From an uncultured Gemmatimonadota bacterium (GTDB lineage: Bacteria; Gemmatimonadota; Gemmatimonadetes; Palauibacterales; Palauibacteraceae): 64,000 nucleotides of DNA. The stretch covers positions 5,355 through 69,354 of the forward strand of contig CAYXHP010000072.1 in NCBI GenBank assembly GCA_964465015.1, written 5' to 3'. The position numbers and the translations under genes are program-made. Positions 3,092 through 57,800 of the stretch are shown in pieces. The first letter of the stretch is position 1; each line of letters begins with the position of its first letter. Below the pieces are notes generated by a model that saw only the letters and a list, made by a program, of their open reading frames with translations, had not been told where the DNA came from and did no database searches.

Positions 3092-3661
3092 ATGGAGGGA
3101 GGCGCGGTGACCCATACCGTGGGAATCGGGTTCTCGGGCGCTATCCTTTTATTTTCGGCCTCTCTCCTCGTGGCCCAGCAGCCATCCGACGCACCGCGAT
3201 CGGACACCGTGACGCGCGTGGCAGCCGATTCCGACGCGGTTCTGGGCGTAACCTCGCTTCCACGCGAGGAGATTCCCGGCTACGCCGCCACGGCACGCTT
3301 CTTGGGCTCGTTGCACCGGCGAGACAATTCGCGTGCCGAGCCCGCCACAACCCGGAACGAGCTCTCCCTCGACCTCGTCGTGGATGAGACGCTCACCCCC
3401 ATGGGACGAGACTTCTTCCAGGCGTTCTACACGGCCTGGAAGGCCCCCGAGGGAGCGCCTACCTACGCCATACGGATCGGCGAGCAGCCGACGCCCGGCC
3501 TGTCCACCCGGATCGTCCTCTACCTGAACAACGAGCGGCTCCTGCAGTTCCCCCTGGTGAAGACGAGCCACGATTTCATCGAGGAGGTGGCGGGTCAGGC
3601 CGTTCGGTACATGCAGCAGCAGCTCCGGCAGCGCCTGTCGCCCGACGTCGAAGGATCCTGA
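3092..3661 (+). CDS. csgE: curli assembly/secretion specificity factor CsgE homolog
   Basis: It aligns to E. coli CsgE. The segment LDLVVDETLTPMGRDFFQAFYTAWK matches [24 protein letters not shown], and the IRIGEQPTP...LLQFPL...DF block matches INERPSARW...FQTFLFPLKRDF. There is an N-terminal signal peptide. The start is ambiguous: ATG at 3092, GTG at 3068 or GTG at 3107. Confidence 0.8.
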   Translation: MEGGAVTHTVGIGFSGAILLFSASLLVAQQPSDAPRSDTVTRVAADSDAVLGVTSLPREEIPGYAATARFLGSLHRRDNSRAEPATTRNELSLDLVVDETLTPMGRDFFQAFYTAWKAPEGAPTYAIRIGEQPTPGLSTRIVLYLNNERLLQFPLVKTSHDFIEEVAGQAVRYMQQQLRQRLSPDVEGS

Positions 3662-3704
3662 CGCGGCACGCCTCGACCATCACCCCGTCTTCCGTGGAGG
3701 AACG

Positions 3705-4148
3705 GTGAGCCCCGAGCGATCGATTCCGACTCTCGTGTCCGTCGCTGTCGTCACGCTACTGATGGCACTCCCGACGTCGGCTCGCGCCCAGGACCTGGTG
3801 TTCCAACCCCAGGTCACCGGGTTCGGCGCCGCGCCGGCGACGGTTCAGGTGAACCTGCAGCTGGCCCAGGCGCAGCAGGCCCAGCCGGACTTCTCTTCGT
3901 TCAACGATCCGCTGCAGAACTTCCAGCAGGACCTCCAGCGCCAGATCCTGAGCGGCCTGGCACAGCAGATCATCCAGTCGCAGTTCGGCGGCTCGTTCGG
4001 CCAGACCAACATCGACCTGGCGCAGCGCAGCACGTTCAACCTGGGCGACTTCATCGTCGACATCATCCCGGGTACCGATGCGCTCCAGATCCGGGTGGCC
4101 AACACCATCACGGGCAACTCGACCACCATATCCGTTCCGAAGTTCTGA
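3705..4148 (+). CDS. csgF: curli assembly protein CsgF homolog
   Basis: It has a signal peptide. The segment VFQPQVTGFGAAP...LQLAQAQQAQ...FQQDLQRQILSGL...GDFIVDIIPGTDALQIRVANTITGNSTTISVPKF parallels E. coli CsgF (FQFRNPNFGGNP...NSAQAQN...FTQAIQSQILGGL...NDYIVDI...LQLNVTDRKTGQTSTIQV...F). Confidence 0.85.
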   Translation: MSPERSIPTLVSVAVVTLLMALPTSARAQDLVFQPQVTGFGAAPATVQVNLQLAQAQQAQPDFSSFNDPLQNFQQDLQRQILSGLAQQIIQSQFGGSFGQTNIDLAQRSTFNLGDFIVDIIPGTDALQIRVANTITGNSTTISVPKF

Positions 4149-4205
4149 GAGCCTCGTGAGCGGACACCGCGCGTCCAACACACGAAGCGATCAGGAGAGA
4201 CACGG

Positions 4206-5579
4206 ATGAGGCGAGCGATCGGCCTCGGCACGGCGCTCCTCCTCGGAGCGGCGGGGTGCACGAACTACATGGCTCCCCTGCACACCGCCCCGCCGCGCCC
4301 GAACGGGTCCACGCCGGTGACGCGGGAGCTCCGCGAGCTCCCGGCGCCCAAGGAGAAGGTGGTGGCGGCGGTGTACCGGTTCCGGGACGAGACGGGCCAG
4401 TACAAGCCCAGCGCGAACGCGACCAGCTTCTCGACGGCCGTCACGCAGGGGGCGACGTCGATCCTGATCGATGCGCTCCAGACCTCCGGCTGGTTCGTGC
4501 CGATCGAGCGGGAGGACCTCTCCAACCTCCTGAACGAACGCCAGATCATCCAGCAGATCCGGCAGCAGTACGAGGGCGCGGCCAAAGACCAGCACCAGCT
4601 CCCGCCCCTCCTGTTCGCCGGCGTGATGCTCGAGGGCGGCATCATCGGCTACAACACGAACACGGTGACCGGCGGCGAGGCCGCCCGCTACTTCGGGGCG
4701 GGAGGCTCGGCCGTCTTCCACCAGGACCAGGTCACCGTCTACCTCCGGGCCGTTTCCACGCAGACGGGGCGCGTGCTGGAGAACGTCCACGCGACCAAGA
4801 CCATCCTCTCCCAGGAGGTCGAGGCGGGGATCTTCCGCTTCGTCGAGGCCAACCGGCTGCTCCAGTCCGACATCGGCTACAGCTACAACGAGCCCACCAC
4901 CGTCGCGGTCCGCGAGGCGATCGAGGAATCCGTACGCGCGCTGGTCGTGGAAGGGATCAAGGATGGCCTGTGGAGTCTCGCCGACTCCGCCGACTCGCGG
5001 AGCCCCGCGATCCTGGCCTACGAGCGTGACAAGAACCGGGCGCAGCGGACCGACGTGTTCGATCTGTTCCGGGGAGCGAGCCGCACGGGCTTCTCGCTCG
5101 GCCTGTGGGCGGGCGGTCAGAAGCTGGAGGGGAATTACCAGAACTCGCTCATCCGTCCGAGCGGAGGCCTCACGATCCGGCACTCCGTCTCGCCGAACGT
5201 CACGTTCGGCCTCGATGCCTCGGCCTGGCAGATCGCGGCCCGCAACGGCTTCCAGAGCACCGGCGCCTCGTTCGGGGGGAGCGCCCTCTACTACTTCCTG
5301 CCCGACGGCACGGCCACGCCTTACGTGCAGGTCGGCGCCGGGGCGCTAAAGGGCGACCTCATCTCGAGCGCCGGATCCGAGGGCCCGCTTCGCTGGCGGC
5401 CCTACATCTCGGCCGCCCTCGGAGTCGAGTACATGGTGCGTCCGGGAGCGGCGTTCGACCTGAAGCTCGAGAACCAGTACGCGGCCGAGGAAGGCATCGA
5501 CAACGTGGACGAGGGGGGGCTCAACGACTCCCTCTGGCGCCTCTCGGCCGGCTTCATCTTCTACTTGTCGCACTTCTGA
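4206..5579 (+). CDS. csgG: curli secretion channel lipoprotein CsgG with an extra C-terminal ~190-aa beta-barrel-like domain
   Basis: It has the lipobox LLGAAGC. Residues ~40-260 align along their length with E. coli CsgG (VAAVYRFRDETGQYKP, NLLNERQIIQQ, GGIIGYNTNTVTGGEAARYFGAG, TKTILSQEVEAGIFRF, SYNEPTTVAVREAIE). Residues ~265-457 are an additional domain with alternating hydrophobic beta-strand patterns and a C-terminal ...GFIFYLSHF (terminal Phe), like an OMP barrel. Confidence 0.9.
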   Translation: MRRAIGLGTALLLGAAGCTNYMAPLHTAPPRPNGSTPVTRELRELPAPKEKVVAAVYRFRDETGQYKPSANATSFSTAVTQGATSILIDALQTSGWFVPIEREDLSNLLNERQIIQQIRQQYEGAAKDQHQLPPLLFAGVMLEGGIIGYNTNTVTGGEAARYFGAGGSAVFHQDQVTVYLRAVSTQTGRVLENVHATKTILSQEVEAGIFRFVEANRLLQSDIGYSYNEPTTVAVREAIEESVRALVVEGIKDGLWSLADSADSRSPAILAYERDKNRAQRTDVFDLFRGASRTGFSLGLWAGGQKLEGNYQNSLIRPSGGLTIRHSVSPNVTFGLDASAWQIAARNGFQSTGASFGGSALYYFLPDGTATPYVQVGAGALKGDLISSAGSEGPLRWRPYISAALGVEYMVRPGAAFDLKLENQYAAEEGIDNVDEGGLNDSLWRLSAGFIFYLSHF

Positions 5580-5787
5580 CGTTCGTGTGGGGTGGTGGGG
5601 ACGTCCGTTCCAGCAACCGCAATCACCCGGGAGGACAACGGAGCTGAACTGACGAGCGACCGCGAGGTTCCGACCGGTGAGCCGGTCGGCGTGGGAGGAA
5701 CGCCGGGTTCCCGCGACGGCAAATAGGACGGCGCAGCCAGACGAGCGAGACGCAGTACCAGCGTTCACTCAGAGCGGAGAGAACAGC

Positions 5788-6741
5788 ATGCGTAAGCTCC
5801 AAGCACTCTTACTGGCCGGCGTCGTCGGACTGTTCCTGACGGCTGTCCCGGCGTATGGGCAGAGCAATACGGCCCACACGACCCAGACCGGGGACAACCT
5901 GAGCGCCGAGACGCACCAGCCCGGCGCCAGCAACCTGGCGAACATCGTGCAGGCCAACGACAACACGGGGCCGGAGGTGGCCTTCATTCGCCAGGCAGGG
6001 AACCACAACCAGGCCTTCATCCAGCAGAGCCAGACCGGTGGCGGCGGGATCACGCCTCCGCTGGAAGCGAGCATTCGGCAGTCCGGCGACTACAACGTCG
6101 CCCATCAGTCCGAGACCGCTCCCAGTTCGAATGCCGAGCAGATCCAGGAGGCGGTTCAGTCGGGCAACCACAACCGCTCCACGCAGACCATCGAGCACGG
6201 CTACACGATCCACCAGACCGTGCATCAGTCCGGTGACAACAACGTGGCGCGGCAGACCATCGGCGCAGACGGAAACGGACATATCAACGCCGACATCGTC
6301 CAGAGCGGAAACGGCAACACAGCCACGCAGGATCAGGCGGGCCTGAACGACAACGCGAGCATCACTCAGCCGGGCAACAACAACGTCGCGCACCAGCACC
6401 AGACCGGTCCGGCGTTCAGCCACGTGAATACGGCCGAGATCCGGCAGTCGGGGAATTCCAACACGGCGGTTCAGAACCAGACCATGGTCTCCGCCGCAGC
6501 CCCGCCGCACTACAACTACGCCACGGCTCACCAGTCGGGAAGCTCTAACCACGCCACTCAGAACCAGAGCGGGTTCGATCTGAACGCCACGATCCTCCAG
6601 TCCGGCAACGGCAACGTGGCGACGCAGAGCCAGATGTCCGGGTCTCTCCTAATGTCGACGATCACCCAGTCCAGCAACAACAACGTCGCGCACACAACGC
6701 AGACGGGCACCAGCGACGTCGCGACGGTCACGCAGGGCTGA
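5788..6741 (+). CDS. csgA: curlin-repeat major subunit (CsgA-like), paralog 1
   Basis: The signal peptide MRKLQALLLAGVVGLFLTAVPAYGQ is followed by many imperfect curlin repeats of the type Q-x-G-x-x-N-x-A-x3-Q (e.g. IRQSGDYNVAHQ, VHQSGDNNVARQ, IVQSGNGNTATQ, ITQPGNNNVAHQ, ILQSGNGNVATQ, ITQSSNNNVAHTTQ). An RBS GGAGAG lies upstream. Confidence 0.85.
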   Translation: MRKLQALLLAGVVGLFLTAVPAYGQSNTAHTTQTGDNLSAETHQPGASNLANIVQANDNTGPEVAFIRQAGNHNQAFIQQSQTGGGGITPPLEASIRQSGDYNVAHQSETAPSSNAEQIQEAVQSGNHNRSTQTIEHGYTIHQTVHQSGDNNVARQTIGADGNGHINADIVQSGNGNTATQDQAGLNDNASITQPGNNNVAHQHQTGPAFSHVNTAEIRQSGNSNTAVQNQTMVSAAAPPHYNYATAHQSGSSNHATQNQSGFDLNATILQSGNGNVATQSQMSGSLLMSTITQSSNNNVAHTTQTGTSDVATVTQG

Positions 6742-43437: not shown

Positions 43438-43606
43438 GAGGCGGGGGTGAAGCGGTCCGTGGGACCGAGGGTCGGCCGGGGCCGCGAATCGATAATGACT
43501 ATTGATTCGAGCCTCCTGGCGGCCTAGCTTCCCGTCACCGAGCCATGCCGGAAGCACGAGGGCGCGCGCTCCGGCATCACGCGGCCGTACTCCGAGGCAC
43601 GAGCCC

Positions 43607-44113
43607 ATGGACACCACTCTCCAGACCCGACCTCCGCTGGGCTGCGCTGCAGTCATGATGAGCGTGTTCCGCGCCAGCCTGCAGGAGCACCAGCTCCCCG
43701 TCACGCAACAGCGGGAGACGGTGGCGGGCATCCTGTTCGAGTCCACCGGTCACCTGTCGGCCGACGATATCGCCGCCCGGCTCAGCGAGCGTGGCGATCA
43801 CGTCGGCAAGGCCACGATCTATCGGACCCTGAACCTCCTGGTGGACGTCGGGCTGGCCACGGAACACGACTTCGACGAGGGCTTCAAGCGCTACGAGGCC
43901 CGCATCGGGCCCTCGCGCCACGATCACCTGATCTGCACCTCGTGCGGGGAGGTGTTCGAGTTCCACCGACCGGAGCTCGACGCGCTCCAGGAGGAGATCG
44001 GGGCCGAGACCGGCTTCAGGCCCCTCACCCGGCAGGTCAAGATCTACGGCCTGTGCGCCGAGTGCGACGCCGCCGAGGCGCGCGAGGGAGAGGATCTCCG
44101 TCGTGCCGGGTAG
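43607..44113 (+). CDS. fur: Fur-family metalloregulator
   Basis: The DNA-binding helix is ATIYRTLNLLVDVGL. The metal sites are HDHLICTSCGEVFEF and the C-terminal CAEC. An alternative start is the ATG at 43655. Confidence 0.8.
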   Translation: MDTTLQTRPPLGCAAVMMSVFRASLQEHQLPVTQQRETVAGILFESTGHLSADDIAARLSERGDHVGKATIYRTLNLLVDVGLATEHDFDEGFKRYEARIGPSRHDHLICTSCGEVFEFHRPELDALQEEIGAETGFRPLTRQVKIYGLCAECDAAEAREGEDLRRAG

Positions 44114-44167
44114 GCCGGGCCACCGCGCTGCCGGCCCGCCGCCACTCTTCCCGCACGGCCGCTTCGC

Positions 44168-44734
44168 GTGAGCCGCGCGAGCGAGCGGCTCCTCCAGCTC
44201 CTGGCGCAGCGCTCCTTCCGCCTGGGCGACTTCGAGCTCGCCTCCGGTCGCCACAGCGACTACTACATCGACTGCCGTACCACCACGATGCACGCCGAGG
44301 GGCAGGCGCTCCTGGGCGAGGTGGCCCTGGACGCCTTGCACGAAGCGGAGCTCCATCCCGACCTCGTCGGTGGGCTCACCATGGGCGCCGACCCTATCTC
44401 GTACTCGATCGCCGGCGAGAGCTGGCGCCGCGGGGAGCCGGTCCACGCCTTCTCGGTCCGAAAGCGCGCCAAGGACCACGGACGTGGCCGCCGCATCGAG
44501 GGCTGCTTCGAGGCCGGCGCACGCGTGGTGGTGGTGGAGGACGTGATCACGACCGGAGGCTCGGCCCTGCAGGCGATTCGCGAGGTCGCGACCGAGAACG
44601 GCCAGGTGCTGGGTGTACTGGCGCTGGTGGACCGGGAGGAAGGCGGACGGCAGGCCATCGAGCGGGAGGGCCATCGGGTGATCGCCCTGTACACGGCCGG
44701 CGAGCTCCGGGACGCCTACCGGCAGCTCGACTGA
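44168..44734 (+). CDS. pyrE: orotate phosphoribosyltransferase
   Basis: The PRPP-binding loop is VVVVEDVITTGGS. The N-terminal segment FELASGRHSDYYID is typical of PyrE. Confidence 0.85.
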   Translation: MSRASERLLQLLAQRSFRLGDFELASGRHSDYYIDCRTTTMHAEGQALLGEVALDALHEAELHPDLVGGLTMGADPISYSIAGESWRRGEPVHAFSVRKRAKDHGRGRRIEGCFEAGARVVVVEDVITTGGSALQAIREVATENGQVLGVLALVDREEGGRQAIEREGHRVIALYTAGELRDAYRQLD

Positions 44735-44809
44735 AACAGACGAACCGGTGAGGGGTTTGGAGCAGGAACGGCCGCTTTTCGACCCGTGTTCGGTGGAGGA
44801 CAGGCCCAC

Positions 44810-45388
44810 GTGATCCGCTTCACGGAAACCGCCCGCCAGCGCGTGCTGGCGTTCATGGAGGAGGAGGGTGAGAAGGGACTCGCGGTCCGCATCGACCTGC
44901 GCGACTCGAGTCCCTTCGCCCCGGAATACGACCTGGCCCTGATCGGTCCCGAAGAGATCATCGAGGACGACCGGGCGTTCGACCAGGGAGGTTTCCGTCT
45001 CTACGCGGCACCGACCGCCGCCGAGTTCCTGGAGGGCTCGGAGATCGACTGGGTCGAATCGCTGCAGGGAACCGGCTTCAAGGTCGACAACCCCAACGTG
45101 AGGCCGCTCGGGTCCGAGCCTCCCAGCGGTCCGCTCGCCGAGCGGGTCGAACAGGTGCTGCGCGAGCAGATCAACCCCGGGGTCGCCTCCCATGGCGGCC
45201 ACGTCAGCCTGGTCGACATCCGCGACGGAGTCGTCTTCCTCCGCATGAGCGGCGGGTGCCAGGGGTGCGGGATGGCCTCCGTGACCCTGACGCAGGGTAT
45301 CAAGGAGGCGCTGCGTCGCGCGATACCCGAGGTGCGGGGGGTCGAGGACGTCACCGACCACTCCGCCGGCCGGAACCCCTACTACTAG
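44810..45388 (+). CDS. nfuA: Fe-S cluster biogenesis protein NfuA (HesB/IscA-like N-domain + NifU C-domain)
   Basis: GGAGGA-N10-GTG start. The C-terminal segment is GGHVSLVDIRDGVVFLRMSGGCQGCGMASVTL (CxxC). Confidence 0.8.
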   Translation: MIRFTETARQRVLAFMEEEGEKGLAVRIDLRDSSPFAPEYDLALIGPEEIIEDDRAFDQGGFRLYAAPTAAEFLEGSEIDWVESLQGTGFKVDNPNVRPLGSEPPSGPLAERVEQVLREQINPGVASHGGHVSLVDIRDGVVFLRMSGGCQGCGMASVTLTQGIKEALRRAIPEVRGVEDVTDHSAGRNPYY

Positions 45389-45392
45389 TCCC

Positions 45393-46622
45393 CTAGCGCA
45401 GGATCCCCGCCACCCCCGTCTCCGTGGGCATGCGCTCCGCGGGGAGCACGAGCGCGTTTCCGCCGTGCAGGATCACCACCTCGGCGAGCTCGTCCAGGAG
45501 CTCGGCCGCCTCCCCGGATGGATCGTCGCCGCCCTCCTTCTCGATCTCGATCGCGCCGGTCTCACGGTCCAGGCGGCCCCACACCCGTCGGTCACGCTCG
45601 GTGAGGAGCAGTCGGATACGGCCGGCCACGGCCAGGTGAGCCAGGTTGGCCAGGTCCAGCTCCCCCTTGCCGCGCCCGTAGGATCCCTCCCACAGGTCCA
45701 GGGCCCGGTCGATCTCGCGGTCCACCTGCGCCCGCGCGATCGGCCACGCCGCCTGGTGGACGCGCTCGGCGCTCCAATCGGCGACGGAGGCCTCGATCCC
45801 CTGCTCGGCCAGGTTGCGCAGCCGGCTCACGTCGCGGTACAGGGAGTGGTATTCCTTGACCGCGGCCAGGACCAGCGGTCCGATCTCTCCCTCGAGCATG
45901 TCCTGCAGTCCCTCGTCGACCGCCTTGAAGAACCGGCGGAGCTCGGGCTCGTCGTCGTCGGCGCCGACCCCGTGGCCGTGGAAGACCGGCATCACGCCAC
46001 CCCGACCGTGCGTGCCGTGCGTATCCCGGGTGTACTTGCGGCGGAGCACGATCTTCTGATCGCGTTCGAACTCGTAGCCCAGAGCTTCCATGAGGTTGCG
46101 CGGCACGCCCTGGAGGTCGATGGGGCTCGCTCCGGCCGCCGTCCCGGACCACAGGACGACCTTCTTCTGGCTCAGCCCGAGCACCCAGTACCGGTCGGGC
46201 GCCTGGAGGTACTCGAGCATCGGGCGGGTATGGAAGGTCGGCGCCACGACCACCAGGTCGGGGAGATCGGCCGGGAGCCGGTAGAGCCGCTGGACGGCGG
46301 GTGAGGCGAATACGGCCAGCCCTCCCGACTGGTACCGCCAGAACTCCTCCTCGCGCGTCAGCGGCTCGAGCTCCGCGGTGAGGGACTCCCCGGCGCCGTT
46401 GGAGCCCTCGGCCGTGCCGAGCAGATCCCGGGCCCGGTCCAGCGCCGCCCGGTACCGGAGGCGATTGGTCTCCGCCTCGCTGCTCGAGCGCTCGGTAGGA
46501 ACGTACATGGAGATGGCGGGACCTTCCCGCTCCTCCAGCAGGGTGCGCAGGTCATCTCGTCCAAAGTAGTCCACGAAAGCCCCCTCTCGTGAGGTCGGCT
46601 CGGTATCAGGCAGCGCGTTCAT
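45393..46622 (-). CDS. hypothetical protein (possibly bacterial eRF1/Pelota-like 'baeRF' fold; unconfirmed)
   Basis: 409 aa of soluble composition. There is no clear motif. The C-terminal ELLDELAEVVILHGGNALVLP resembles the C-domain of eRF1/Pelota-like proteins. Confidence 0.55.
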   Translation of the reverse strand: MNALPDTEPTSREGAFVDYFGRDDLRTLLEEREGPAISMYVPTERSSSEAETNRLRYRAALDRARDLLGTAEGSNGAGESLTAELEPLTREEEFWRYQSGGLAVFASPAVQRLYRLPADLPDLVVVAPTFHTRPMLEYLQAPDRYWVLGLSQKKVVLWSGTAAGASPIDLQGVPRNLMEALGYEFERDQKIVLRRKYTRDTHGTHGRGGVMPVFHGHGVGADDDEPELRRFFKAVDEGLQDMLEGEIGPLVLAAVKEYHSLYRDVSRLRNLAEQGIEASVADWSAERVHQAAWPIARAQVDREIDRALDLWEGSYGRGKGELDLANLAHLAVAGRIRLLLTERDRRVWGRLDRETGAIEIEKEGGDDPSGEAAELLDELAEVVILHGGNALVLPAERMPTETGVAGILR

Positions 46623-46706
46623 CGATTCCCTTCAACCTACGTACCAGCTCCATCGGCGCGGCCACGATCGCCCGACGCGCATCCGCGCCGCATTCGCTAC
46701 GATCCT

Positions 46707-47048
46707 CTAGTCGCCCGGGACGACGGCGTGCAGCACGAGGCCCACGACCGACATGACCAGGGCCCCCAGGAAGGCGGCCCCGAAGCCGCTCAGGGCGAAG
46801 CCCGGCGTGAGAGCGGCGGCCAGGTAGAACAGGACCCCGTTGAGGATCAGGTAGAAGATCCCCAACGTCAGGATCGTGACCGGGAAGGTGAGGAACACCA
46901 GCACCGGCTTGACCACGGCGTTGACGAGGCCGATGACCAGAGCGGCCAGGAGCAGGGCCCGCGTGCCGGCCACGGAGATGCCGGGCACGAGCCACGCGGT
47001 GAACCAGAGGGCGGCGGCGTCGATCAGCCAGTTGACCAGCAGGCGCAT
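46707..47048 (-). CDS. DUF360 / holin-family-4-like small membrane protein
   Basis: 113 aa with 3-4 TM helices. The N-terminal LIDAAALWFTAWLVPGISV matches the DUF360 N-terminal motif. Confidence 0.6.
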   Translation of the reverse strand: MRLLVNWLIDAAALWFTAWLVPGISVAGTRALLLAALVIGLVNAVVKPVLVFLTFPVTILTLGIFYLILNGVLFYLAAALTPGFALSGFGAAFLGALVMSVVGLVLHAVVPGD

Positions 47049-47169
47049 CCGGTGACTCCTTCCATGGGGAACCGCTCTGGCGGCCGACGCCGACGCGCGG
47101 GATCGCCCACCCGTGGCCGCGGACCGGGGCTCCGCGACCACCCGTAATCTAGCGCTCCGGAGGCCCGCC

Positions 47170-47718
47170 ATGAAGATCCAGAGAGATGACGTCACCCTCG
47201 AGCTGGTGCGAGGAAGCATCGCGGCGCAGGAGGGCTTCGACGCGGTGGTGAACGCCGCCAACGCCCGACTGGAACCGGGCGGGGGCGTGGCCGGGGCGAT
47301 CCACCGCGGCGCCGGTCCCGGCCTGGCGCGGGAGTGCCGACCCCTGGGCCCGATCGAGCCCGGCGAGGCCGTACTGACGGGCGGACATCGCCTCCCCAAC
47401 CCCTACGTCATCCACTGCCTGGGTCCGGTGTGGGGCCGGGACGAGCCGGCCGACGAGCTCCTGCGGCGCTGCTACCGGCGAGCGCTCGAGCTGGCCGAGG
47501 AGCACGGTCTCTCCTCCATCGCCTTCCCCGCCCTGTCGACCGGGGCCTTCGGCTACCCGCTCCCCCAGGCCGCCCGGGCCTCGATCGACGAGATCGTGAG
47601 CGCGCTGCCACGCCTCCGTTCGGTGCGGCGGATCCGATTCACGCTGTTCGGAGACGAGGCCCTGGAGGCGTACCGGAAGGCGCTCCGCGACCGAACCGGG
47701 CAGGAGGAGGGAGACTGA
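47170..47718 (+). CDS. macro-domain protein (YmdB-like O-acetyl-ADP-ribose deacetylase)
   Basis: The macro motifs are VVNAANARLEPGGGVAGAIHRGAG and SIAFPALSTGAFGYP. GGAGG lies upstream of the ATG. Confidence 0.8.
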   Translation: MKIQRDDVTLELVRGSIAAQEGFDAVVNAANARLEPGGGVAGAIHRGAGPGLARECRPLGPIEPGEAVLTGGHRLPNPYVIHCLGPVWGRDEPADELLRRCYRRALELAEEHGLSSIAFPALSTGAFGYPLPQAARASIDEIVSALPRLRSVRRIRFTLFGDEALEAYRKALRDRTGQEEGD

Positions 47719-52937: not shown

Positions 52938-53333
52938 ATGAGGGACACGAGCTACGGCGCGCACAGGGAGCTCCCGGGCGTCGACTACGAGGAAGCCATC
53001 GTCCGGGTGGAGGCGGCGCTGGGCGCGGAGGGCTTCGGCGTCCTCACCCGGATCGACGTGAAGGAGACGCTCAAGAAGAAGCTGGACGTGGACTTCAGGC
53101 GCTACGTGATCCTGGGCGCCTGCAATCCACCGCTGGCCCACCGCGCGCTGAGCGCCGACGACGACATCGGGCTGCTCCTGCCCTGCAACGTCGTGGTCGC
53201 CGAGATGGAGGGCGGCGCCGAGGTGGCCTACGCGCGGCCCGAGGCGATGCTGGCCCTGGCGGACGTGCCCGAGCTGCAGTCGGTGGCCCGCGAGGCCGAG
53301 GAGCGGCTGGCGCGGGCGCTGGACAGCCTGTGA
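52938..53333 (+). CDS. DUF302-domain protein
   Basis: 131 aa. VRVEAALGAEGFGVLTRIDVKETLKK...ILGACNP is the DUF302 signature. Confidence 0.75.
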   Translation: MRDTSYGAHRELPGVDYEEAIVRVEAALGAEGFGVLTRIDVKETLKKKLDVDFRRYVILGACNPPLAHRALSADDDIGLLLPCNVVVAEMEGGAEVAYARPEAMLALADVPELQSVAREAEERLARALDSL

Positions 53334-53334
53334 G

Positions 53335-53730
53335 CTAGGGCAGCGGCCGCCGGGACTGGAGAGCGAGGACGTTCTCGTCCGGATCGCGGAAGAAGGCCAT
53401 CCAGAGCTCGTGGTCCTCGGCCCGGTGCACGCGGTGGGGCTCGCCGAGGAAGACCACGCCGCGCTCGCCCAGGACGCGGTACGCGGTGTCGATGTCGTCC
53501 ACCTCGAAGTACAGGACCGACGAGGCGTGATCGAAGTCCGGGCTCTCGGGAGCCGAGAGCATGAGCTGGAGGTCTCCGCACTGCAAGAAGGCCAGGCCGG
53601 GCGGCGCACGGAACAGGAGCGGGAGGCCGAGGGCGTCGCGGTAGAAGTCCACCGACGCGTCGAGGTCCCTCGCGCGCACCGCCACCTGGCCGATGCGACG
53701 GATGCCGAATGCCTCCGCCTGCTCGTTCAT
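53335..53730 (-). CDS. VOC/glyoxalase-family protein
   Basis: ATG at 53730 gives a 131-aa glyoxalase fold (IGQVAVRARDLDASVDFYRDALGL...). The upstream part of ORF 53335..54285 is artefact. Confidence 0.7.
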   Translation of the reverse strand: MNEQAEAFGIRRIGQVAVRARDLDASVDFYRDALGLPLLFRAPPGLAFLQCGDLQLMLSAPESPDFDHASSVLYFEVDDIDTAYRVLGERGVVFLGEPHRVHRAEDHELWMAFFRDPDENVLALQSRRPLP

Positions 53731-53794
53731 GGGCTCTCCTCGCCGGTTCTCGAAGGGACGGGTGCCGCTCGCCCGAACGGCGAGCTTGATTTCA

Positions 53795-53811
53795 TTAGTT
53801 GCTCTAACTAA
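53795..53811 (+). promoter_or_regulatory. perfect AT-rich palindrome TTAGTTGCTCTAACTAA in the divergent VOC-MarR intergenic region; candidate MarR operator
   Basis: The segment 'gatttcattagttgctctaactaaactagtgag' is a sharp AT island. The arms TTAGTT/AACTAA are reverse complements. An overlapping ACTAGT palindrome is also present. Confidence 0.5.
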
Positions 53812-53821
53812 ACTAGTGAGC

Positions 53822-54376
53822 ATGGAGAGCCCGTCAAGGGGAGCCGTGGGGGACGTGGAGGAAGCCGGCCGAACCAGCGCGGTCGGGGCCGTCGGAGCAG
53901 AGGCGACGGGACCGGGCCACGCCGAGATCGCCGCCCGGCTGCACGCCGCGGCCATCCGGCTACTCCGCCGGCTCCGCAGCCAGGATGCGGCGAGCGGCCT
54001 GAGCGGTCCGCGCCTCTCCGCCCTCTCGGTGCTGGTGTTCGGGGGACCGCGGAGCCTGGGCGAGCTGGCGGACGCCGAGCAGGTTACGGCCCCCAGCATG
54101 AGCCGCCTGGCCACGGCGCTCGAAGAGGCCGGCCTGGCGCGCCGGGGGCCCGATCCCGACGACGGCCGCCGGGTGCTGCTCCGCGCCACGGCCGCGGGCG
54201 AGCGGTTGCTGCAGGAAGGACGGCAGCGGCGCATCGGAGAGACGGAGCGGCTCCTGGGGTCGATCGAAGAGACGGACTGGGACATCCTGAGGCAGGCGAC
54301 CGGGATCCTCGAGGGGGTCCTCCGGGAGGAGGGATCCCGGAGGCGCGAGACAGGGACCGGTAGCCCGGGCGGCTGA
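53822..54376 (+). CDS. MarR-family transcriptional regulator
   Basis: The winged HTH is LGELADAEQVTAPSMSRLATALEEAGLARRGPDPDDGRRVLLRATAAGERLL. Confidence 0.75.
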   Translation: MESPSRGAVGDVEEAGRTSAVGAVGAEATGPGHAEIAARLHAAAIRLLRRLRSQDAASGLSGPRLSALSVLVFGGPRSLGELADAEQVTAPSMSRLATALEEAGLARRGPDPDDGRRVLLRATAAGERLLQEGRQRRIGETERLLGSIEETDWDILRQATGILEGVLREEGSRRRETGTGSPGG

Positions 54377-54435
54377 CGGGAGCAGCTACCGCGGGCCCGC
54401 CGGGGGCGAGCCCCGGCACCCTCCCCGGTGAACGA

Positions 54436-55641
54436 CTACATGCCGCCGGCGCGCACCGGCGCGGCGCTACGGCTCTGGACGCGACGGCCGACGCGGGCCT
54501 CCAGCGAGACGCGAACGCCCGGCGGTTCGTACGGGCAGAAGGGATCCTCCCCGAGCGGGTCGCCGGAAGCCGCGAAGGCCCGCGCGCGGCTGCCGCCGCA
54601 CACGAACCGGAACGGGCAGATCCCGCACTTGCCGTGCAGGGCCTCGGGGTCCCGCAGCGAGCGGAACAGGTCGCTGTCCCGGTAGAGCTCGACCAGCGAG
54701 CGCTCGCGGACGTTGCCGGCCGATAGCGCCAGGAAGCCGGATGGGAACACCTCGCCCGTGTGGCTGATGAACACGAACCCGTTGCCATCGCCGGTCGATC
54801 CGAGATCGGCCGCGGTCGGACCCGCGGGATCGGGGAGGCGTCCGCTGTTCCGGTCCTCGGCCTCGATCTCGCGACCGACGCGCCGGTAGAAGGGCGCCTC
54901 CACGGTCACCACCTTGAACGAGGCGCGGCGCTGGCGACGGTAGATCCAGCGCAGCAGGGCCTCGGTCTCCCGCGGCCCGAGCGGCTGGAGCACGGAGCCG
55001 CGGCCCACCGGCACGAGGAAGAAGAGCTCCCAGGCCACCGCTCCCAGCGACTCCACCAGATCGGCGATGCAGGCCATGTCGCCCGCGTTGCCGCTGGTAA
55101 CGGTGGTGTTGATCTGGATCGGGAGCCCCACCCGGCGCGCGGCCTCGGCCGCCCGCATCACCACGTCGAAGGAGCCGGGCTGGCCCCGGAAGGCGTCGTG
55201 GTCGGCGCTGCTGCATCCGTCCAGAGACAGCGCCATCCGGACCACGCCGGCGTCCTTCAGTCGGCCGATGAGCTCGTCCGTGAGCGACGGCGCGGGGGCC
55301 GGTGTGACCGCCATGTGGAGCCCGAGCTCGCGACCGTGGTCGAGGAGCTCGAACACGTCCGGACGCACCATCGGGTCGCCACCCGAGAGGACGACCACCG
55401 GAGGCCGAGGCGTGAACGCCGCCACCTGCCGCAGGACTTCGAAGGCCTCCGCGGTCGTCAGCTCGTCCGGGTGCGCGAACGGCTGGGCCTCGGCACGACA
55501 GTGCACGCACTTGAGCGGGCACGCCTGCGTCAGCTCCCAGGTGAGGACCACCGGTGCCTCCGCGTACGCGCGCCGCATGGCCCGGGGGCCACCCCCGGCG
55601 CGGTGCGGGTGTCCCCCCGCGTGTCCGATTCCCATCTCCAT
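54436..55641 (-). CDS. radical SAM / SPASM-domain enzyme, AhbD/NirJ-like
   Basis: The rSAM cluster is CPLKCVHC, preceded by LTWELTQA (WE.T..C.L.C.HC as in the NirJ/AhbC/AhbD family). The SPASM C-terminus is GKCGICPFRFVCGGSRARA...DPFCPY. The start is at MEMGIGH (RBS GGGGGAGAGAG) or at MRRAYAE (55578). Confidence 0.8.
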   Translation of the reverse strand: MEMGIGHAGGHPHRAGGGPRAMRRAYAEAPVVLTWELTQACPLKCVHCRAEAQPFAHPDELTTAEAFEVLRQVAAFTPRPPVVVLSGGDPMVRPDVFELLDHGRELGLHMAVTPAPAPSLTDELIGRLKDAGVVRMALSLDGCSSADHDAFRGQPGSFDVVMRAAEAARRVGLPIQINTTVTSGNAGDMACIADLVESLGAVAWELFFLVPVGRGSVLQPLGPRETEALLRWIYRRQRRASFKVVTVEAPFYRRVGREIEAEDRNSGRLPDPAGPTAADLGSTGDGNGFVFISHTGEVFPSGFLALSAGNVRERSLVELYRDSDLFRSLRDPEALHGKCGICPFRFVCGGSRARAFAASGDPLGEDPFCPYEPPGVRVSLEARVGRRVQSRSAAPVRAGGM

Positions 55642-55927
55642 AGTCGTCTCTCTCCCCCCGGCGAACGTCGAACATGCCTCGGACTTCGCACCCATAGTGG
55701 CTCGCACGGTGGCCGGGCCGGTATAGGAAGGTGGCCGACGGCGATCGTGGGGCAACGGCCCGGCCCCGTGTGGTGGGGATCCCACCGTCTCCGTAGGGAA
55801 GCACCCGACACCGGAACGGGAGACGTGGAACGGCGCGGCACCCACGATCGTTCCCATGGGGCCGGCACCGGGCGTGCGGCCCGACCGGGCCCGCGGGACC
55901 GTGGTGGACGAAGCGAGGAGATGAAGG

Positions 55928-56524
55928 ATGCGAAGGCGGACGTTCGTGGCCGGACTGGCCGGGATCGCGGCGGCCCCGCTGTTCCTGGGTGAATGGCTCG
56001 GGCTCGAACGCGATCCGGACGAAGGGGCCGGACGCGGCGCGGGGCCCGGGCTCCTGCGCGATGCGGCGGCCGGGGGCCGCTCCGACACGACGGGTGGCGA
56101 AGCCGTGCCCCCGCTTCGGAAGAGCCGCGAGGAGTGGAAACGGATCCTCGAGCCCGACGCCTACGCCGTCCTGTTCGAAGCGTACACCGAGCGCCCTTTC
56201 TCCAGTCCACTCGACCACGAGACGCGGGCCGGCACGTACGTGTGCGCGGCCTGCTTCCTGCCCCTGTTCTCCTCGGACACCAAGTACGACAGCGGTACCG
56301 GGTGGCCCAGCTTCTGGCGGCCGCTCGATGAGAGTCATCTGGCCACCAAGCCCGACTACCAGCTGGTCGTCCCGCGCACCGAGTACCACTGCGTGCGTTG
56401 CGGCGGCCACCAGGGGCACGTGTTCGACGACGGCCCGCCCCCCACCGGATTGCGCTACTGCAACAACGGCCTGGCGCTGCGCTTCGTACCGAAGGGCGAG
56501 GACCTCCCGGCCCTGCGCACCTGA
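55928..56524 (+). CDS. msrB: peptide-methionine (R)-S-oxide reductase MsrB with an N-terminal Tat-like signal and linker
   Basis: GAGGAG then ATG. MRRRTFVAGLAGIAAAPLFLG matches the RRxF pattern plus an h-region. The MsrB core has the catalytic Cys (GTGWPSFWRP...RYCNNGLALRF) and two CxxC zinc pairs. Confidence 0.85.
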   Translation: MRRRTFVAGLAGIAAAPLFLGEWLGLERDPDEGAGRGAGPGLLRDAAAGGRSDTTGGEAVPPLRKSREEWKRILEPDAYAVLFEAYTERPFSSPLDHETRAGTYVCAACFLPLFSSDTKYDSGTGWPSFWRPLDESHLATKPDYQLVVPRTEYHCVRCGGHQGHVFDDGPPPTGLRYCNNGLALRFVPKGEDLPALRT

Positions 56525-56621: not shown

Positions 56622-57800
56622 ATGCGCTCGTTCGACTACCTGATCATCGGCGCGGGAATGACCGCGGACGCCGCCGTGGCGGGCATCCGCGAGCAGGACG
56701 AGGACGGCTCCATCGGACTCATCGGCGCCGAGGAGGAGCCCCCCTACGACCGTCCCCCCCTCAGCAAGGGCCTGTGGAAGGACATGTCCGAGGAGGACAT
56801 CTGGCGGTCTTCCGCCGCCGACGAGGCCGATCTCCTCCTGGGACGGAGGGTCGTATCGCTGGACCGCGAGGCGAAGACCGTCCGGGACGACGGCGGCGAC
56901 GAGTACGGCTACGGCAAGCTTCTCCTGGCCACGGGCGGCGCGCCGCGGACCCTCCCCGACGCGCCCGCGGAGGTGATCCACTACCGGACCTTGGAGGACT
57001 ACCGGCGGCTGCGCGCGCTGGCGGACGACGCGCGCCGATTCATCATCGTCGGGGGCGGGTTCATCGGGAGCGAGGTCGCGGCGGCCCTGTGCATGGCCGA
57101 CCGGGACGTGACGATCGTGTTTCCGGAGAAGGACCTGTGCTCCCGGCTCTTCCCTGCGCGCCTGGCGAGCTTCGTCTCCGAGTACTTCCGGAAGCAGGGC
57201 GTGACGGTGCTATCCGGCGAGAGCGTGGCGGGCGTCTTCTCCCGGGACGGCGGCGTGCAGGTCTCCCTGCGGTCGGGCGAGTCGCTGCGCGCGGACGGGG
57301 TGGTGGTCGGCATCGGCATCGTCCCGGAGACCGGTCTGGCGGAGGACGCCGGCCTGGACGTCGGCGACGGGATCGTGGTGGACGCGCACCTGCGGACGAG
57401 CGACCCGGACATCTTCGCGGCGGGCGACGTGGCGTCCTTCCCCCATCCGGCTCTCCGCCGGCGCCTGCGCGTGGAGCACGAGGACGCTGCCAACACCATG
57501 GGCCGCCAGGCCGGACGCAACATGGCCGGGGCCGACGAGCCCTACGAGCACGTACCGCTCTTCTACTCCGACCTGTTCGACCTCGGCTACGAGGCGGTGG
57601 GCCGCGTGGACACGCGCCTGGACATCGTCGAGGACTGGGAGGAGGAGCATCGCAAGGGCGTGGTCTACTACCTCGAGGACGAGCGGGTCGAGGGCGTCCT
57701 GCTGTGGAACACGTGGGGGCAGGACGAGGCCGCCCGCGGACTCCTGCGCGACCGCTCGAAGATCCTCCCCGGCGACCTGGTGGGCCGCCTGCCCGAATAG
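56622..57800 (+). CDS. FAD-dependent pyridine nucleotide-disulfide oxidoreductase (AIF/ferredoxin-reductase-like)
   Basis: GGAGGAGAGG then ATG. The FAD site is DYLIIGAGMTADAA. The NAD site is FIIVGGGFIGSEVAA. There is a C-terminal reductase dimerisation domain. Confidence 0.8.
   Translation: MRSFDYLIIGAGMTADAAVAGIREQDEDGSIGLIGAEEEPPYDRPPLSKGLWKDMSEEDIWRSSAADEADLLLGRRVVSLDREAKTVRDDGGDEYGYGKLLLATGGAPRTLPDAPAEVIHYRTLEDYRRLRALADDARRFIIVGGGFIGSEVAAALCMADRDVTIVFPEKDLCSRLFPARLASFVSEYFRKQGVTVLSGESVAGVFSRDGGVQVSLRSGESLRADGVVVGIGIVPETGLAEDAGLDVGDGIVVDAHLRTSDPDIFAAGDVASFPHPALRRRLRVEHEDAANTMGRQAGRNMAGADEPYEHVPLFYSDLFDLGYEAVGRVDTRLDIVEDWEEEHRKGVVYYLEDERVEGVLLWNTWGQDEAARGLLRDRSKILPGDLVGRLPE

Follow-up and report, generated by a model that had tools for sequence, protein, structure and literature searches.

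The in vitro biochemistry of AhbD has been worked out with enzymes that carry the full SPASM domain, those of M. barkeri and D. vulgaris, and not with the single-auxiliary-cluster subclass. In the M. barkeri enzyme, the AuxI cluster was found to influence the second decarboxylation (PMC10452713). AhbDs from non-methanogens combine a CX3CX2C motif with a C-terminal CX2CX5CX20-38C motif and have Glu, Ser and Ser at the positions of M. barkeri C223, C274 and C324 (PMC10452713). The ahb genes of H. volcanii are scattered (PMC8305020), and deletion of one of its genes, HVO_2144, impaired anaerobic growth alone. Supply of haem to this mutant fully restored growth by DMSO respiration and restored denitrifying growth partly at best (PMC5746218). 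The gene product is listed by UniProt as "Coproheme decarboxylase AhbD" (D4GUU1), while NCBI names it TIGR04053; it was recognised here through its neighbours, namely nirK, the Pfam family named HVO_2142, DUF2249, halocyanin and norB. In Thermus, the member of the same family has been called NirJ by the researchers working on it (PMC5748679, PMC7694296). The oxygen-free haem step in bacteria using the coproporphyrin-dependent (CPD) pathway was called unknown in a 2024 paper (PMC10965808). A 2026 review assigns it, on genomic grounds only, to AhbD, which is reported in CPD bacteria without any other Ahb enzyme (PMC13564367).

The window considered here, that is, the whole 64-kb stretch of DNA analysed, contains a radical SAM (rSAM) gene encoding 401 residues at 54436..55641 on the minus strand. 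It lies within a longer ORF (54436-56088, minus strand), whose in-frame upstream codons had been regarded as non-coding, and rightly so, the true start being the ATG at 55641. This start is preceded by GGGGGGAGAGAG, and the ATGGAG start is kept in four relatives. Both motifs claimed in the preliminary description, WELTQACPLKCVHC and CGICPFRFVCGGSRARA...DPFCPY, were found. The CX3CX2C motif of the radical SAM cluster (C41, C45 and C48; 55498..55521, minus strand) is invariant in all 304 family members, as are the four cysteines of a CX2CX5CX20C motif (C339, C342, C348 and C369; 54535..54627, minus strand). The latter are the predicted ligands of a single auxiliary [4Fe-4S] cluster of the AuxII type. 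At the positions of the AuxI cysteines stand E248, T283, S301 and S351, and the same replacements occur in 280-303 of the 304 relatives. These positions were assigned via motif spacing and not via alignment to the M. barkeri sequence. S351, at the site of M. barkeri AhbD C324, is Ser in 287 of the 304, whereas the seven cysteines, E248 and S301 are each present in 303-304. The "SPASM tail" of the preliminary description thus shrinks to a four-Cys remnant sufficient for one auxiliary cluster: the AuxI cysteines are missing, and only the AuxII half of the canonical eight-Cys motif is left. In Pfam, the rSAM domain (PF04055) was detected as anticipated and the SPASM domain (PF13186) was not. An AF2 model (pLDDT 89) has a radical SAM barrel and a C-terminal domain, preceded by a His/Gly-rich extension of 25 residues with low model confidence. 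No AhbD structure is present in the PDB; the best folds for the model are PqqE, SuiB and BlsE, which are generic SPASM/twitch enzymes, and the best sequence match is PqqE (1.5e-23).

The rSAM gene is an ordinary member of an already known family. The protein passes the NCBIfam equivalog TIGR04053 with 433.2 bits (cutoff 395; positions 3-366 of a model of 366). Against the canonical AhbD model, TIGR04545, it fails with 325.6 bits (cutoff 500), though aligned over the full length, and the same model is also failed by the H. larsenii orthologue of HVO_2144 (343 bits) and by the Thermus family member (351 bits). The preliminary description had called the enzyme AhbD/NirJ-like. This holds, as the AhbD model is the second-best NCBIfam match after TIGR04053 and the family includes the H. 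volcanii AhbD. Formally, the subgroup is TIGR04053 and none of the AhbD or NirJ TIGRFAMs, which is the outcome it had named as speaking against itself. TIGR04053 is, however, the single-auxiliary-cluster AhbD type, and CX3CX2C, CX2CX5CX20C, E248, S301 and S351 together reproduce the pattern of the non-methanogen single-auxiliary-cluster AhbD group (Fix et al. 2023; PMC10452713). The nearest named homologues come from Gemmatimonadota MAGs and are only ~56% identical. A full-text literature search for "TIGR04053" returned no paper. The family is unnamed at NCBI, AhbD at UniProt (for H. volcanii) and NirJ in Thermus, and this leaves an annotation gap.

HVO_2144 aligns with the window protein over 344 residues with 55% identity (E 1e-123). 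The two share TIGR04053, both Cys motifs and Glu/Thr/Ser/Ser in place of the AuxI ligands, and in both organisms the gene lies apart from other haem genes. Unlike its archaeal counterpart, the window enzyme belongs to a bacterial host, has the His/Gly-rich N-terminal extension, and is encoded in a window without norB, nirK, halocyanin, DUF2249 or the CGCGG protein discussed below. With the canonical AhbDs (M. barkeri Mbar_A1458 and D. vulgaris; TIGR04545) it shares the alignment along the full-length model, with radical SAM core and C-terminal auxiliary-cluster domain, and presumably the reaction from Fe-coproporphyrin III to haem b. The AuxI cysteines (C223, C256, C274 and C324 in M. barkeri numbering) are absent, so that two clusters are expected and not three. 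Because AuxI affects the second decarboxylation in M. barkeri, the kinetics or the handling of the intermediate may differ in the window enzyme.

By analogy with these systems, we consider it likely that the rSAM protein is an oxygen-independent coproheme decarboxylase, that is, an AhbD-type haem b synthase with one auxiliary cluster, and that the MarR gene next to it forms a separate unit. The mechanism is modelled on the characterised AhbDs. SAM would be reductively cleaved at the CX3CX2C cluster, and the resulting 5′-deoxyadenosyl radical would take hydrogen atoms, sequentially, from the propionates of rings A and B of Fe-coproporphyrin III. Each substrate radical would then lose CO2 and one electron to give a vinyl group, the released electron leaving via the CX2CX5CX20C cluster. 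[quoted passage not shown] Fold and chemistry are unrelated, as ChdC employs H2O2 while the window enzyme would employ a SAM-derived radical in an oxygen-free reaction. Since coproheme would be the only substrate needed, the enzyme could serve as an anaerobic alternative to ChdC/HemQ in the CPD pathway without AhbA, AhbB or AhbC. "Probable oxygen-independent coproheme decarboxylase" is a suitable annotation for the gene.

The surroundings of the gene were described earlier as devoid of ahbABC or nirDLGH partners, and a Pfam scan of 46 ORFs of the window bears this out, no such gene nor any other tetrapyrrole gene being found. None of these ORFs is a coproheme-supplying gene either, be it CpfC of the CPD pathway or AhbABC. 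The label "orphan, substrate unknown" does not follow, as absence of ahbABC nearby is normal for AhbD genes, given the scattered ahb genes of H. volcanii and the CPD bacteria with AhbD alone. Upstream of the rSAM start, a conserved 5′ region (55642..55800, minus strand), including GT(N)GGG-N5-CCCTAC, consists of blocks shared by the window and four relatives (loci L001, L006, L008 and L010), and these are probably promoter or operator blocks of the rSAM gene. A riboswitch in this leader was considered and rejected: RNAalifold gave -7.7 kcal/mol, covariation support was absent, and an Rfam scan of 53200-56200 with E up to 1 returned one chance-level miRNA match only.

Divergent from the rSAM gene lies an MsrB gene with an N-terminal twin-arginine-like signal (55928..56524, plus strand; TIGR00357, 151 bits). 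It is missing from this position in the relatives; in L001 and L006, an FAD oxidoreductase is directly divergent from the rSAM gene instead. In the window, this FAD-dependent ferredoxin/rubredoxin-reductase-like oxidoreductase of 392 residues (HcaD/AndAa/NorW-like) follows at 56622..57800 on the plus strand. It is 52% identical, over the full length, to an oxidoreductase of Thermus JL-18 encoded 2.5 kb from the TIGR04053 gene of that organism. It is possibly the redox partner of the rSAM enzyme, the linkage being weak. As a conserved partner it was rejected, since among 96 loci the linkage is confined to two lineages, the window's own clade and Thermus. On the other side of the MarR gene, and divergent from it, stands a gene for a VOC/glyoxalase-fold protein of 131 residues (53335..53730, minus strand; PF00903, 1.5e-18), which is found beside the rSAM gene in all close relatives whether MarR is present or not.

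Elsewhere the family has neighbourhoods of a different kind, anaerobic or NO-related, which favour the decarboxylase reading; that the window copy lies in no such setting counts against it. The Thermus locus has the order nor-nirS-rSAM-cytochrome c, and the haloarchaeal loci contain norB, nirK and halocyanin. In B. mycoides the neighbours are nrdDG, adhE, FprA and Fnr, and in D. ficus they are CbiX, cobA and a P450. Hemerythrin, COX1/NorB, ScdA, NnrS and Crp/Fnr are the commonest neighbour families in 16 further bacterial loci, and no haem-synthesis family is found among the 25 commonest bacterial ones, a further point against that reading. A protein of TIGR03995, "CGCGG family putative rSAM-modified RiPP protein" (Pfam rSAM_target_put), is encoded within 6 kb in 25 of ~63 haloarchaeal loci, in 13 cases immediately upstream of the family gene on the same strand. 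By its NCBI label, this protein, often encoded near haloarchaeal family members, is a putative target of an rSAM enzyme.

According to another reading, TIGR04053 enzymes are not plain haem b synthases but part of a conserved archaeal and bacterial module for NO reduction or nitrosative stress, in which they make a specialised cofactor or act on or with a small protein (in haloarchaea, for example, the CGCGG protein). We regard this as unlikely. If it were true, the haem-rescuable phenotype of H. volcanii would be indirect, and the window copy, which lies outside any anaerobic or denitrification neighbourhood, would work with some other partner.

An improbable rival reading makes the rSAM protein a RiPP-like maturase whose protein or peptide substrate, comparable to the CGCGG proteins, is encoded elsewhere in the genome. 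The TIGR03995 genes near the 25 haloarchaeal loci hint at a protein substrate or accessory, and the closest solved folds include the peptide-modifying SPASM enzymes PqqE, SuiB and SkfB. Nevertheless, neither the window, translated in all six frames, nor any bacterial locus yielded a homologue when searched with an HMM built from 25 CGCGG proteins. Some peptide maturases bind their substrate through the AuxI cluster, which the window protein lacks, and every RiPP-maturase model scored far under its cutoff. Neither an adjacent precursor nor PF13186, by which a SPASM-domain RiPP maturase would be recognised, is present at the locus. The preliminary description had seen no precursor peptide, and the small-ORF search of the two gaps flanking the rSAM gene likewise gave nothing convincing or conserved. 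The 55642-55927 gap contains just three ORFs of 21-29 residues, and relatives show no conservation of its distal part (past ~55800), where the 22-residue ORF lies; towards the MarR gene, the gap of 59 nt is too short for a peptide ORF. The rescue of the H. volcanii mutant by haem (PMC5746218) also argues against a peptide substrate.

Little likelihood is given as well to a NirJ-like or other tetrapyrrole tailoring role for denitrification enzymes, such as a step towards haem d1 or an NO-reductase cofactor, instead of general haem b synthesis. The Thermus thermophilus "NirJ" (TTJL18_RS11465) is encoded in a nirSJM operon, and linkage of the family to norB, NnrS and ScdA recurs across phyla. This "NirJ" is itself a TIGR04053 member (483 bits) and 46% identical to the window protein. 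Its locus resembles the window in having a convergent MarR gene nearby and, within 4 kb, a methionine sulfoxide reductase gene as well as that of the 52%-identical FAD oxidoreductase. It differs in that it sits in a mobile denitrification island and is induced by DnrS, DnrT and NsrR, the name having been given by homology only; the reductase nearby is MsrA where the window has MsrB, and the MarR proteins of the two loci are not related. The NirJ-type models (NirJ, NirJ1 and NirJ2) are all failed by the window protein, with 159, 138 and 210 bits for TIGR04051, TIGR04054 and TIGR04055 against cutoffs of 515, 650 and 500. Identity to true NirJ is ~30% and to TIGR04053 members at least 40%, which leaves a gap between the groups. 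Moreover, haloarchaea of the NirK type and non-denitrifying Bacillus also have family members, no other haem d1 gene was seen beside any family member, and the window is without nir or nor genes.

The decarboxylase reading leaves the MarR gene as a neighbour. This gene (plus strand, PF12802 1.4e-10 and PF01047 1.2e-8) resembles the Rv0880 family only weakly (87 bits against a cutoff of 220). It probably starts at GTG 53846, giving 53846..54376, with ATG 53822 as the alternative, because the AAGGGGAGCC-GTG block, a Shine-Dalgarno sequence with the GTG, is conserved in L001. The palindrome reported before it is real but not contiguous: it is a perfect inverted repeat of 6 bp with a 5-nt spacer, TTAGTT-GCTCT-AACTAA, at 53795..53811. 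The AT island around it is confirmed, the GC content falling locally to 47%, where the window as a whole has 71%. Only one copy of TTAGTT-N5-AACTAA exists in the window even with three mismatches allowed, none being expected, and all 17 bases are the same in L001 despite diverged flanks. Winged-helix domain matches and a 6-5-6 inverted repeat upstream are what is looked for in the MarR family, and the repeat is the probable MarR operator, to be annotated as an ordinary autoregulatory one. The spacer and -10 element of TTGATT-17-TAAACT, a promoter-like sequence for marR (8 of 12 matching, by eye), overlap with this repeat, while a stricter sigma-70 consensus scan gave no marR promoter match.

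The preliminary description had implied a pairing of MarR and enzyme, which is not supported. That MarR, operator and rSAM gene make up a single regulatory unit, in which a ligand sensed by MarR would control the enzyme, is very improbable: the two genes adjoin in the window and in L001, and a convergent MarR gene is also near the Thermus family member, but they are arranged tail to tail, a distance of 1.8 kb separates the operator from the rSAM promoter, the region upstream of the rSAM gene has no operator copy of its own, and the Thermus MarR has no significant similarity to that of the window (E 0.004, 93 residues). In L006 and L010, MarR is deleted save for a 3′ remnant, whereas the VOC gene and the rSAM gene are kept, the latter encoding proteins 76-79% identical to that of the window (80-84% in local alignment). 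The loss of MarR with retention of the enzyme suggests that the two are not functionally coupled, and no sign of MarR control over the rSAM gene was seen. The MarR gene and its palindrome give the impression of a neighbour that has no relation to the enzyme and can be dispensed with. Through TTAGTT-N5-AACTAA, MarR is probably a repressor of its own promoter and perhaps also of the divergent VOC gene, the likeliest candidate for a second target. In the 59 nt between the two convergent stop codons, a GC-rich inverted repeat, GCCGGGG-N5-CCCCGGC (54399..54417), lacks a T-run and may form a bidirectional terminator hairpin.

The radical SAM gene lies on the minus strand at 54436-55641 and encodes a protein of 401 residues. 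It is contained in a longer minus-strand ORF (54436-56088), and its start was taken as the ATG at 55641 because GGGGGGAGAGAG precedes it and because the ATGGAG start is kept in four related loci. The nearest homologues, of 386-433 residues, are similar in length to the window product. Both motifs claimed in the preliminary description, WELTQACPLKCVHC at the N-terminus and CGICPFRFVCGGSRARA...DPFCPY at the C-terminus, are present, and its overall observation of a radical SAM gene with a convergent MarR gene and a palindrome in an AT-rich dip was confirmed.

The protein is a routine member of an already curated family, the NCBIfam equivalog TIGR04053, which it matches over the full model at 433 bits (cutoff 395). 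Among the assignments proposed earlier, PF04055 holds and is the only Pfam match; the SPASM model PF13186 gave none, and the AhbD and NirJ models remain below their cutoffs. The AhbD (oxygen-independent haem b synthase) model TIGR04545 scores 326 bits against a cutoff of 500, yet aligns from end to end. NirJ2 (210 bits) and NirJ (159 bits) are also under cutoff, and all RiPP-maturase NCBIfam models score far below the AhbD and NirJ models and their cutoffs. The nearest named homologues come from Gemmatimonadota MAGs and many Halobacteria (50-57% identity). A tblastn search of plasmids detected family members 40-56% identical on replicons of haloarchaea, Thermus, Deinococcus and the Bacillus cereus group, with a gap down to true NirJ at only ~30%.

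AhbDs were divided into two groups by Fix et al. in 2023 (PMC10452713). Those of methanogens and sulfate reducers carry two auxiliary clusters and a SPASM motif of eight cysteines, whereas non-methanogen archaeal AhbDs retain only CX2CX5CX20-38C, with C223, C274 and C324 replaced by Glu, Ser and Ser (PMC10452713). The C-terminal motif of the window protein is CX2CX5CX20C. Across 304 aligned family members, C41, C45, C48, C339, C342, C348 and C369 are invariant, while E248 is Glu in 303, T283 Thr in 280, S301 Ser in 303 and S351 Ser in 287, the M. barkeri-equivalent positions being mapped by published spacings rather than by alignment to the M. barkeri sequence. The AlphaFold2 model (pLDDT 89, pTM 0.86) shows a radical SAM barrel with a C-terminal domain. 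Its best fold matches in the PDB, which holds no AhbD structure, are PqqE, SuiB, BlsE, SkfB and anSME.

A link to a genetically studied enzyme was provided by Haloferax larsenii, in which the radical SAM gene adjoins halocyanin, norB and nirK, as has been published for ahbD of H. volcanii, HVO_2144 (PMC5746218). A homologue search with the H. larsenii protein retrieved an H. volcanii protein (P0205) that is UniProt D4GUU1, 'Coproheme decarboxylase AhbD', and bears the NCBI name 'TIGR04053 family'. Its locus contains nirK, a match to the Pfam family that bears the name HVO_2142, DUF2249, the radical SAM gene, a copper protein and NorB, and it is therefore HVO_2144. The window protein is 55% identical to it over 344 residues (E 1e-123). 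Deletion of HVO_2144 causes a growth defect only under anaerobic conditions; added haem fully restores growth by DMSO respiration and at best partly restores denitrifying growth (PMC5746218). On these comparisons, the window enzyme is probably an oxygen-independent coproheme decarboxylase of the AhbD type, from the subclass with a single auxiliary cluster.

As the preliminary description had claimed, no ahbABC or nirDLGH partner is evident, nor was any other tetrapyrrole gene found by Pfam scan among 46 ORFs of the 64-kb window, but the orphan status it drew from this is no anomaly. The ahbA, ahbB, ahbC and ahbD genes of H. volcanii are dispersed in the genome (PMC8305020). According to a 2026 review, AhbD is present in bacteria of the coproporphyrin pathway, the majority of them without any other Ahb enzyme, where it would stand in for the oxygen- or peroxide-dependent ChdC (PMC13564367).

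The neighbourhoods of TIGR04053 genes are norC-norB-norH, nirS and cytochrome c in Thermus JL-18; norB, nirK, halocyanin and DUF2249 in haloarchaea; adhE, nrdDG, YwiC, FprA, rubredoxin and Fnr in B. mycoides; P450, CbiX and cobA in D. ficus; and nosDFY, cupredoxin and COX1 in two metagenomic loci. Among 99 ORFs neighbouring the gene in another 16 bacterial loci (within L078-L095), there were hemerythrin 7 times, COX1 6 times (3 with a NorB cytochrome c-like domain), ScdA_N 4 times, and cytochrome c, Crp/Fnr, YwiC and NnrS 3 times each; haem-synthesis families were absent from the 25 most frequent. The commonest of these, hemerythrin/ScdA (RIC), NorB-type COX1, NnrS, Crp/Fnr and YwiC, look like an NO-reductase or nitrosative-stress module. 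The usual setting of TIGR04053 is therefore one of anaerobic and NO-responsive genes, which fits an oxygen-independent haem synthase needed while cells assemble haem enzymes for anaerobic respiration. The window copy is outside any such set. The Thermus member goes by 'NirJ' (PMC5748679, PMC7694296); the published T. thermophilus 'nirJ' of haem d1 maturation (L011:8974-10101) scores 483 bits with TIGR04053 and 164 bits with NirJ against a cutoff of 515, and its name may be wrong.

For the family at large, linkage to TIGR03995, the 'CGCGG family putative rSAM-modified RiPP protein' (Pfam rSAM_target_put), leaves room for a reading of TIGR04053 enzymes as protein maturases or as partners of an accessory protein. 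A TIGR03995 protein of ~100 residues is encoded within 6 kb in 25 of ~63 haloarchaeal loci (for example L015:4938-5237 and L096:12845-13165), and directly upstream on the same strand in 13 (L023, L027-L030, L038, L042-L045, L051, L058, L072); the gene adjoins norB in H. volcanii and Halarchaeum. These proteins end in EQCGCGGHV. The window, however, gives this reading no support: an HMM built from the 25 CGCGG proteins matched nothing when the window and the bacterial loci were searched in six-frame translation, and the small peptide ORF sought in the gaps beside the gene yielded no credible candidate. With the AhbD-type assignment preferred for the window, moderate interest remains in the unsettled annotation of TIGR04053, and little in the window itself.

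The MarR gene (plus strand, PF12802 and PF01047) ends at 54376, 59 nt from the stop of the convergent radical SAM gene. The 'perfect AT palindrome' upstream of it is the candidate operator TTAGTT-GCTCT-AACTAA (53795-53811): the 6-bp inverted arms are indeed perfect, although a 5-nt spacer separates them. It is the only copy in the window when up to 3 mismatches are tolerated (0 expected). GC at this site drops to 47%, from 71% for the whole window. In L001, a related locus whose radical SAM protein is 82% identical by local and 78% by multiple alignment, all 17 bp of the operator are unchanged amid diverged intergenic DNA, and a -35-like TTGA and a AAGGGGAGCC-GTG block are also kept. Judged by sequence, marR would be transcribed from TTGATT-17-TAAACT, whose spacer and -10 the operator overlaps, an arrangement that would give MarR autorepression. 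A pairing of MarR with the radical SAM gene had been implied; in the related loci L006 and L010 (radical SAM proteins 76-79% identical by multiple, 80-84% by local alignment), MarR is lost except for a recognisable 3′ remnant while the radical SAM and VOC genes are kept. Since there is also no second operator in the window, we infer that MarR is not tied to the radical SAM gene; it would be an unrelated, autoregulated neighbour. The deletion (L006 11228-11430, L010 1598-1905; compare window 54300-54385) took the MarR gene and operator and left ~90 nt of remnant between the radical SAM and VOC genes. Between marR and the divergent VOC/glyoxalase gene (53335-53730, minus strand) is a GC-rich hairpin, GCTCGCC-GAACG-GGCGAGC (53767-53785), followed by TTGATTTCAT; it is terminator-like by scan and not conserved in L001.

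The leader of the radical SAM gene (55642-55800) has sequence blocks in common with the relatives, including GT(N)GGG-N5-CCCTAC, which are probably binding sites of some regulator. Rfam gave no match, and no conserved RNA fold was found in this leader. In L001 the element is perfect (GTAGGGC-TCC-GCCCTAC). In the relatives the conserved region is common to the radical SAM gene and a divergent FAD oxidoreductase gene; in the window MsrB (55928-56524) is inserted between the two, both it and the FAD oxidoreductase (56622-57800) being divergent from the radical SAM gene. The window oxidoreductase, a ferredoxin/rubredoxin-reductase-like protein encoded next to the radical SAM gene, shares 52% identity across its whole length with one of Thermus (L011:12567-13745), whose gene is 2.5 kb from the TIGR04053 gene there. 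Both loci have a methionine sulfoxide reductase (MsrB in the window, MsrA in Thermus) and a convergent MarR; the oxidoreductase linkage was found only in these two lineages.

MsrB has an N-terminal extension of ~60 residues beginning MRRRTFVAGLAGIAAAPLF, which looks like a twin-arginine export signal and as such would be unusual for an MsrB. Elsewhere in the window, CsgF, CsgG and a curlin-repeat protein form a secretion set of the curli type at 3561-6741. The run at 43499-47718, syntenic with the relatives, comprises Fur, a phosphoribosyltransferase, a NifU/Fe-S scaffold protein, a bacterial eRF1-like protein (baeRF), a PF04020 holin-like membrane protein and a Macro-domain protein.
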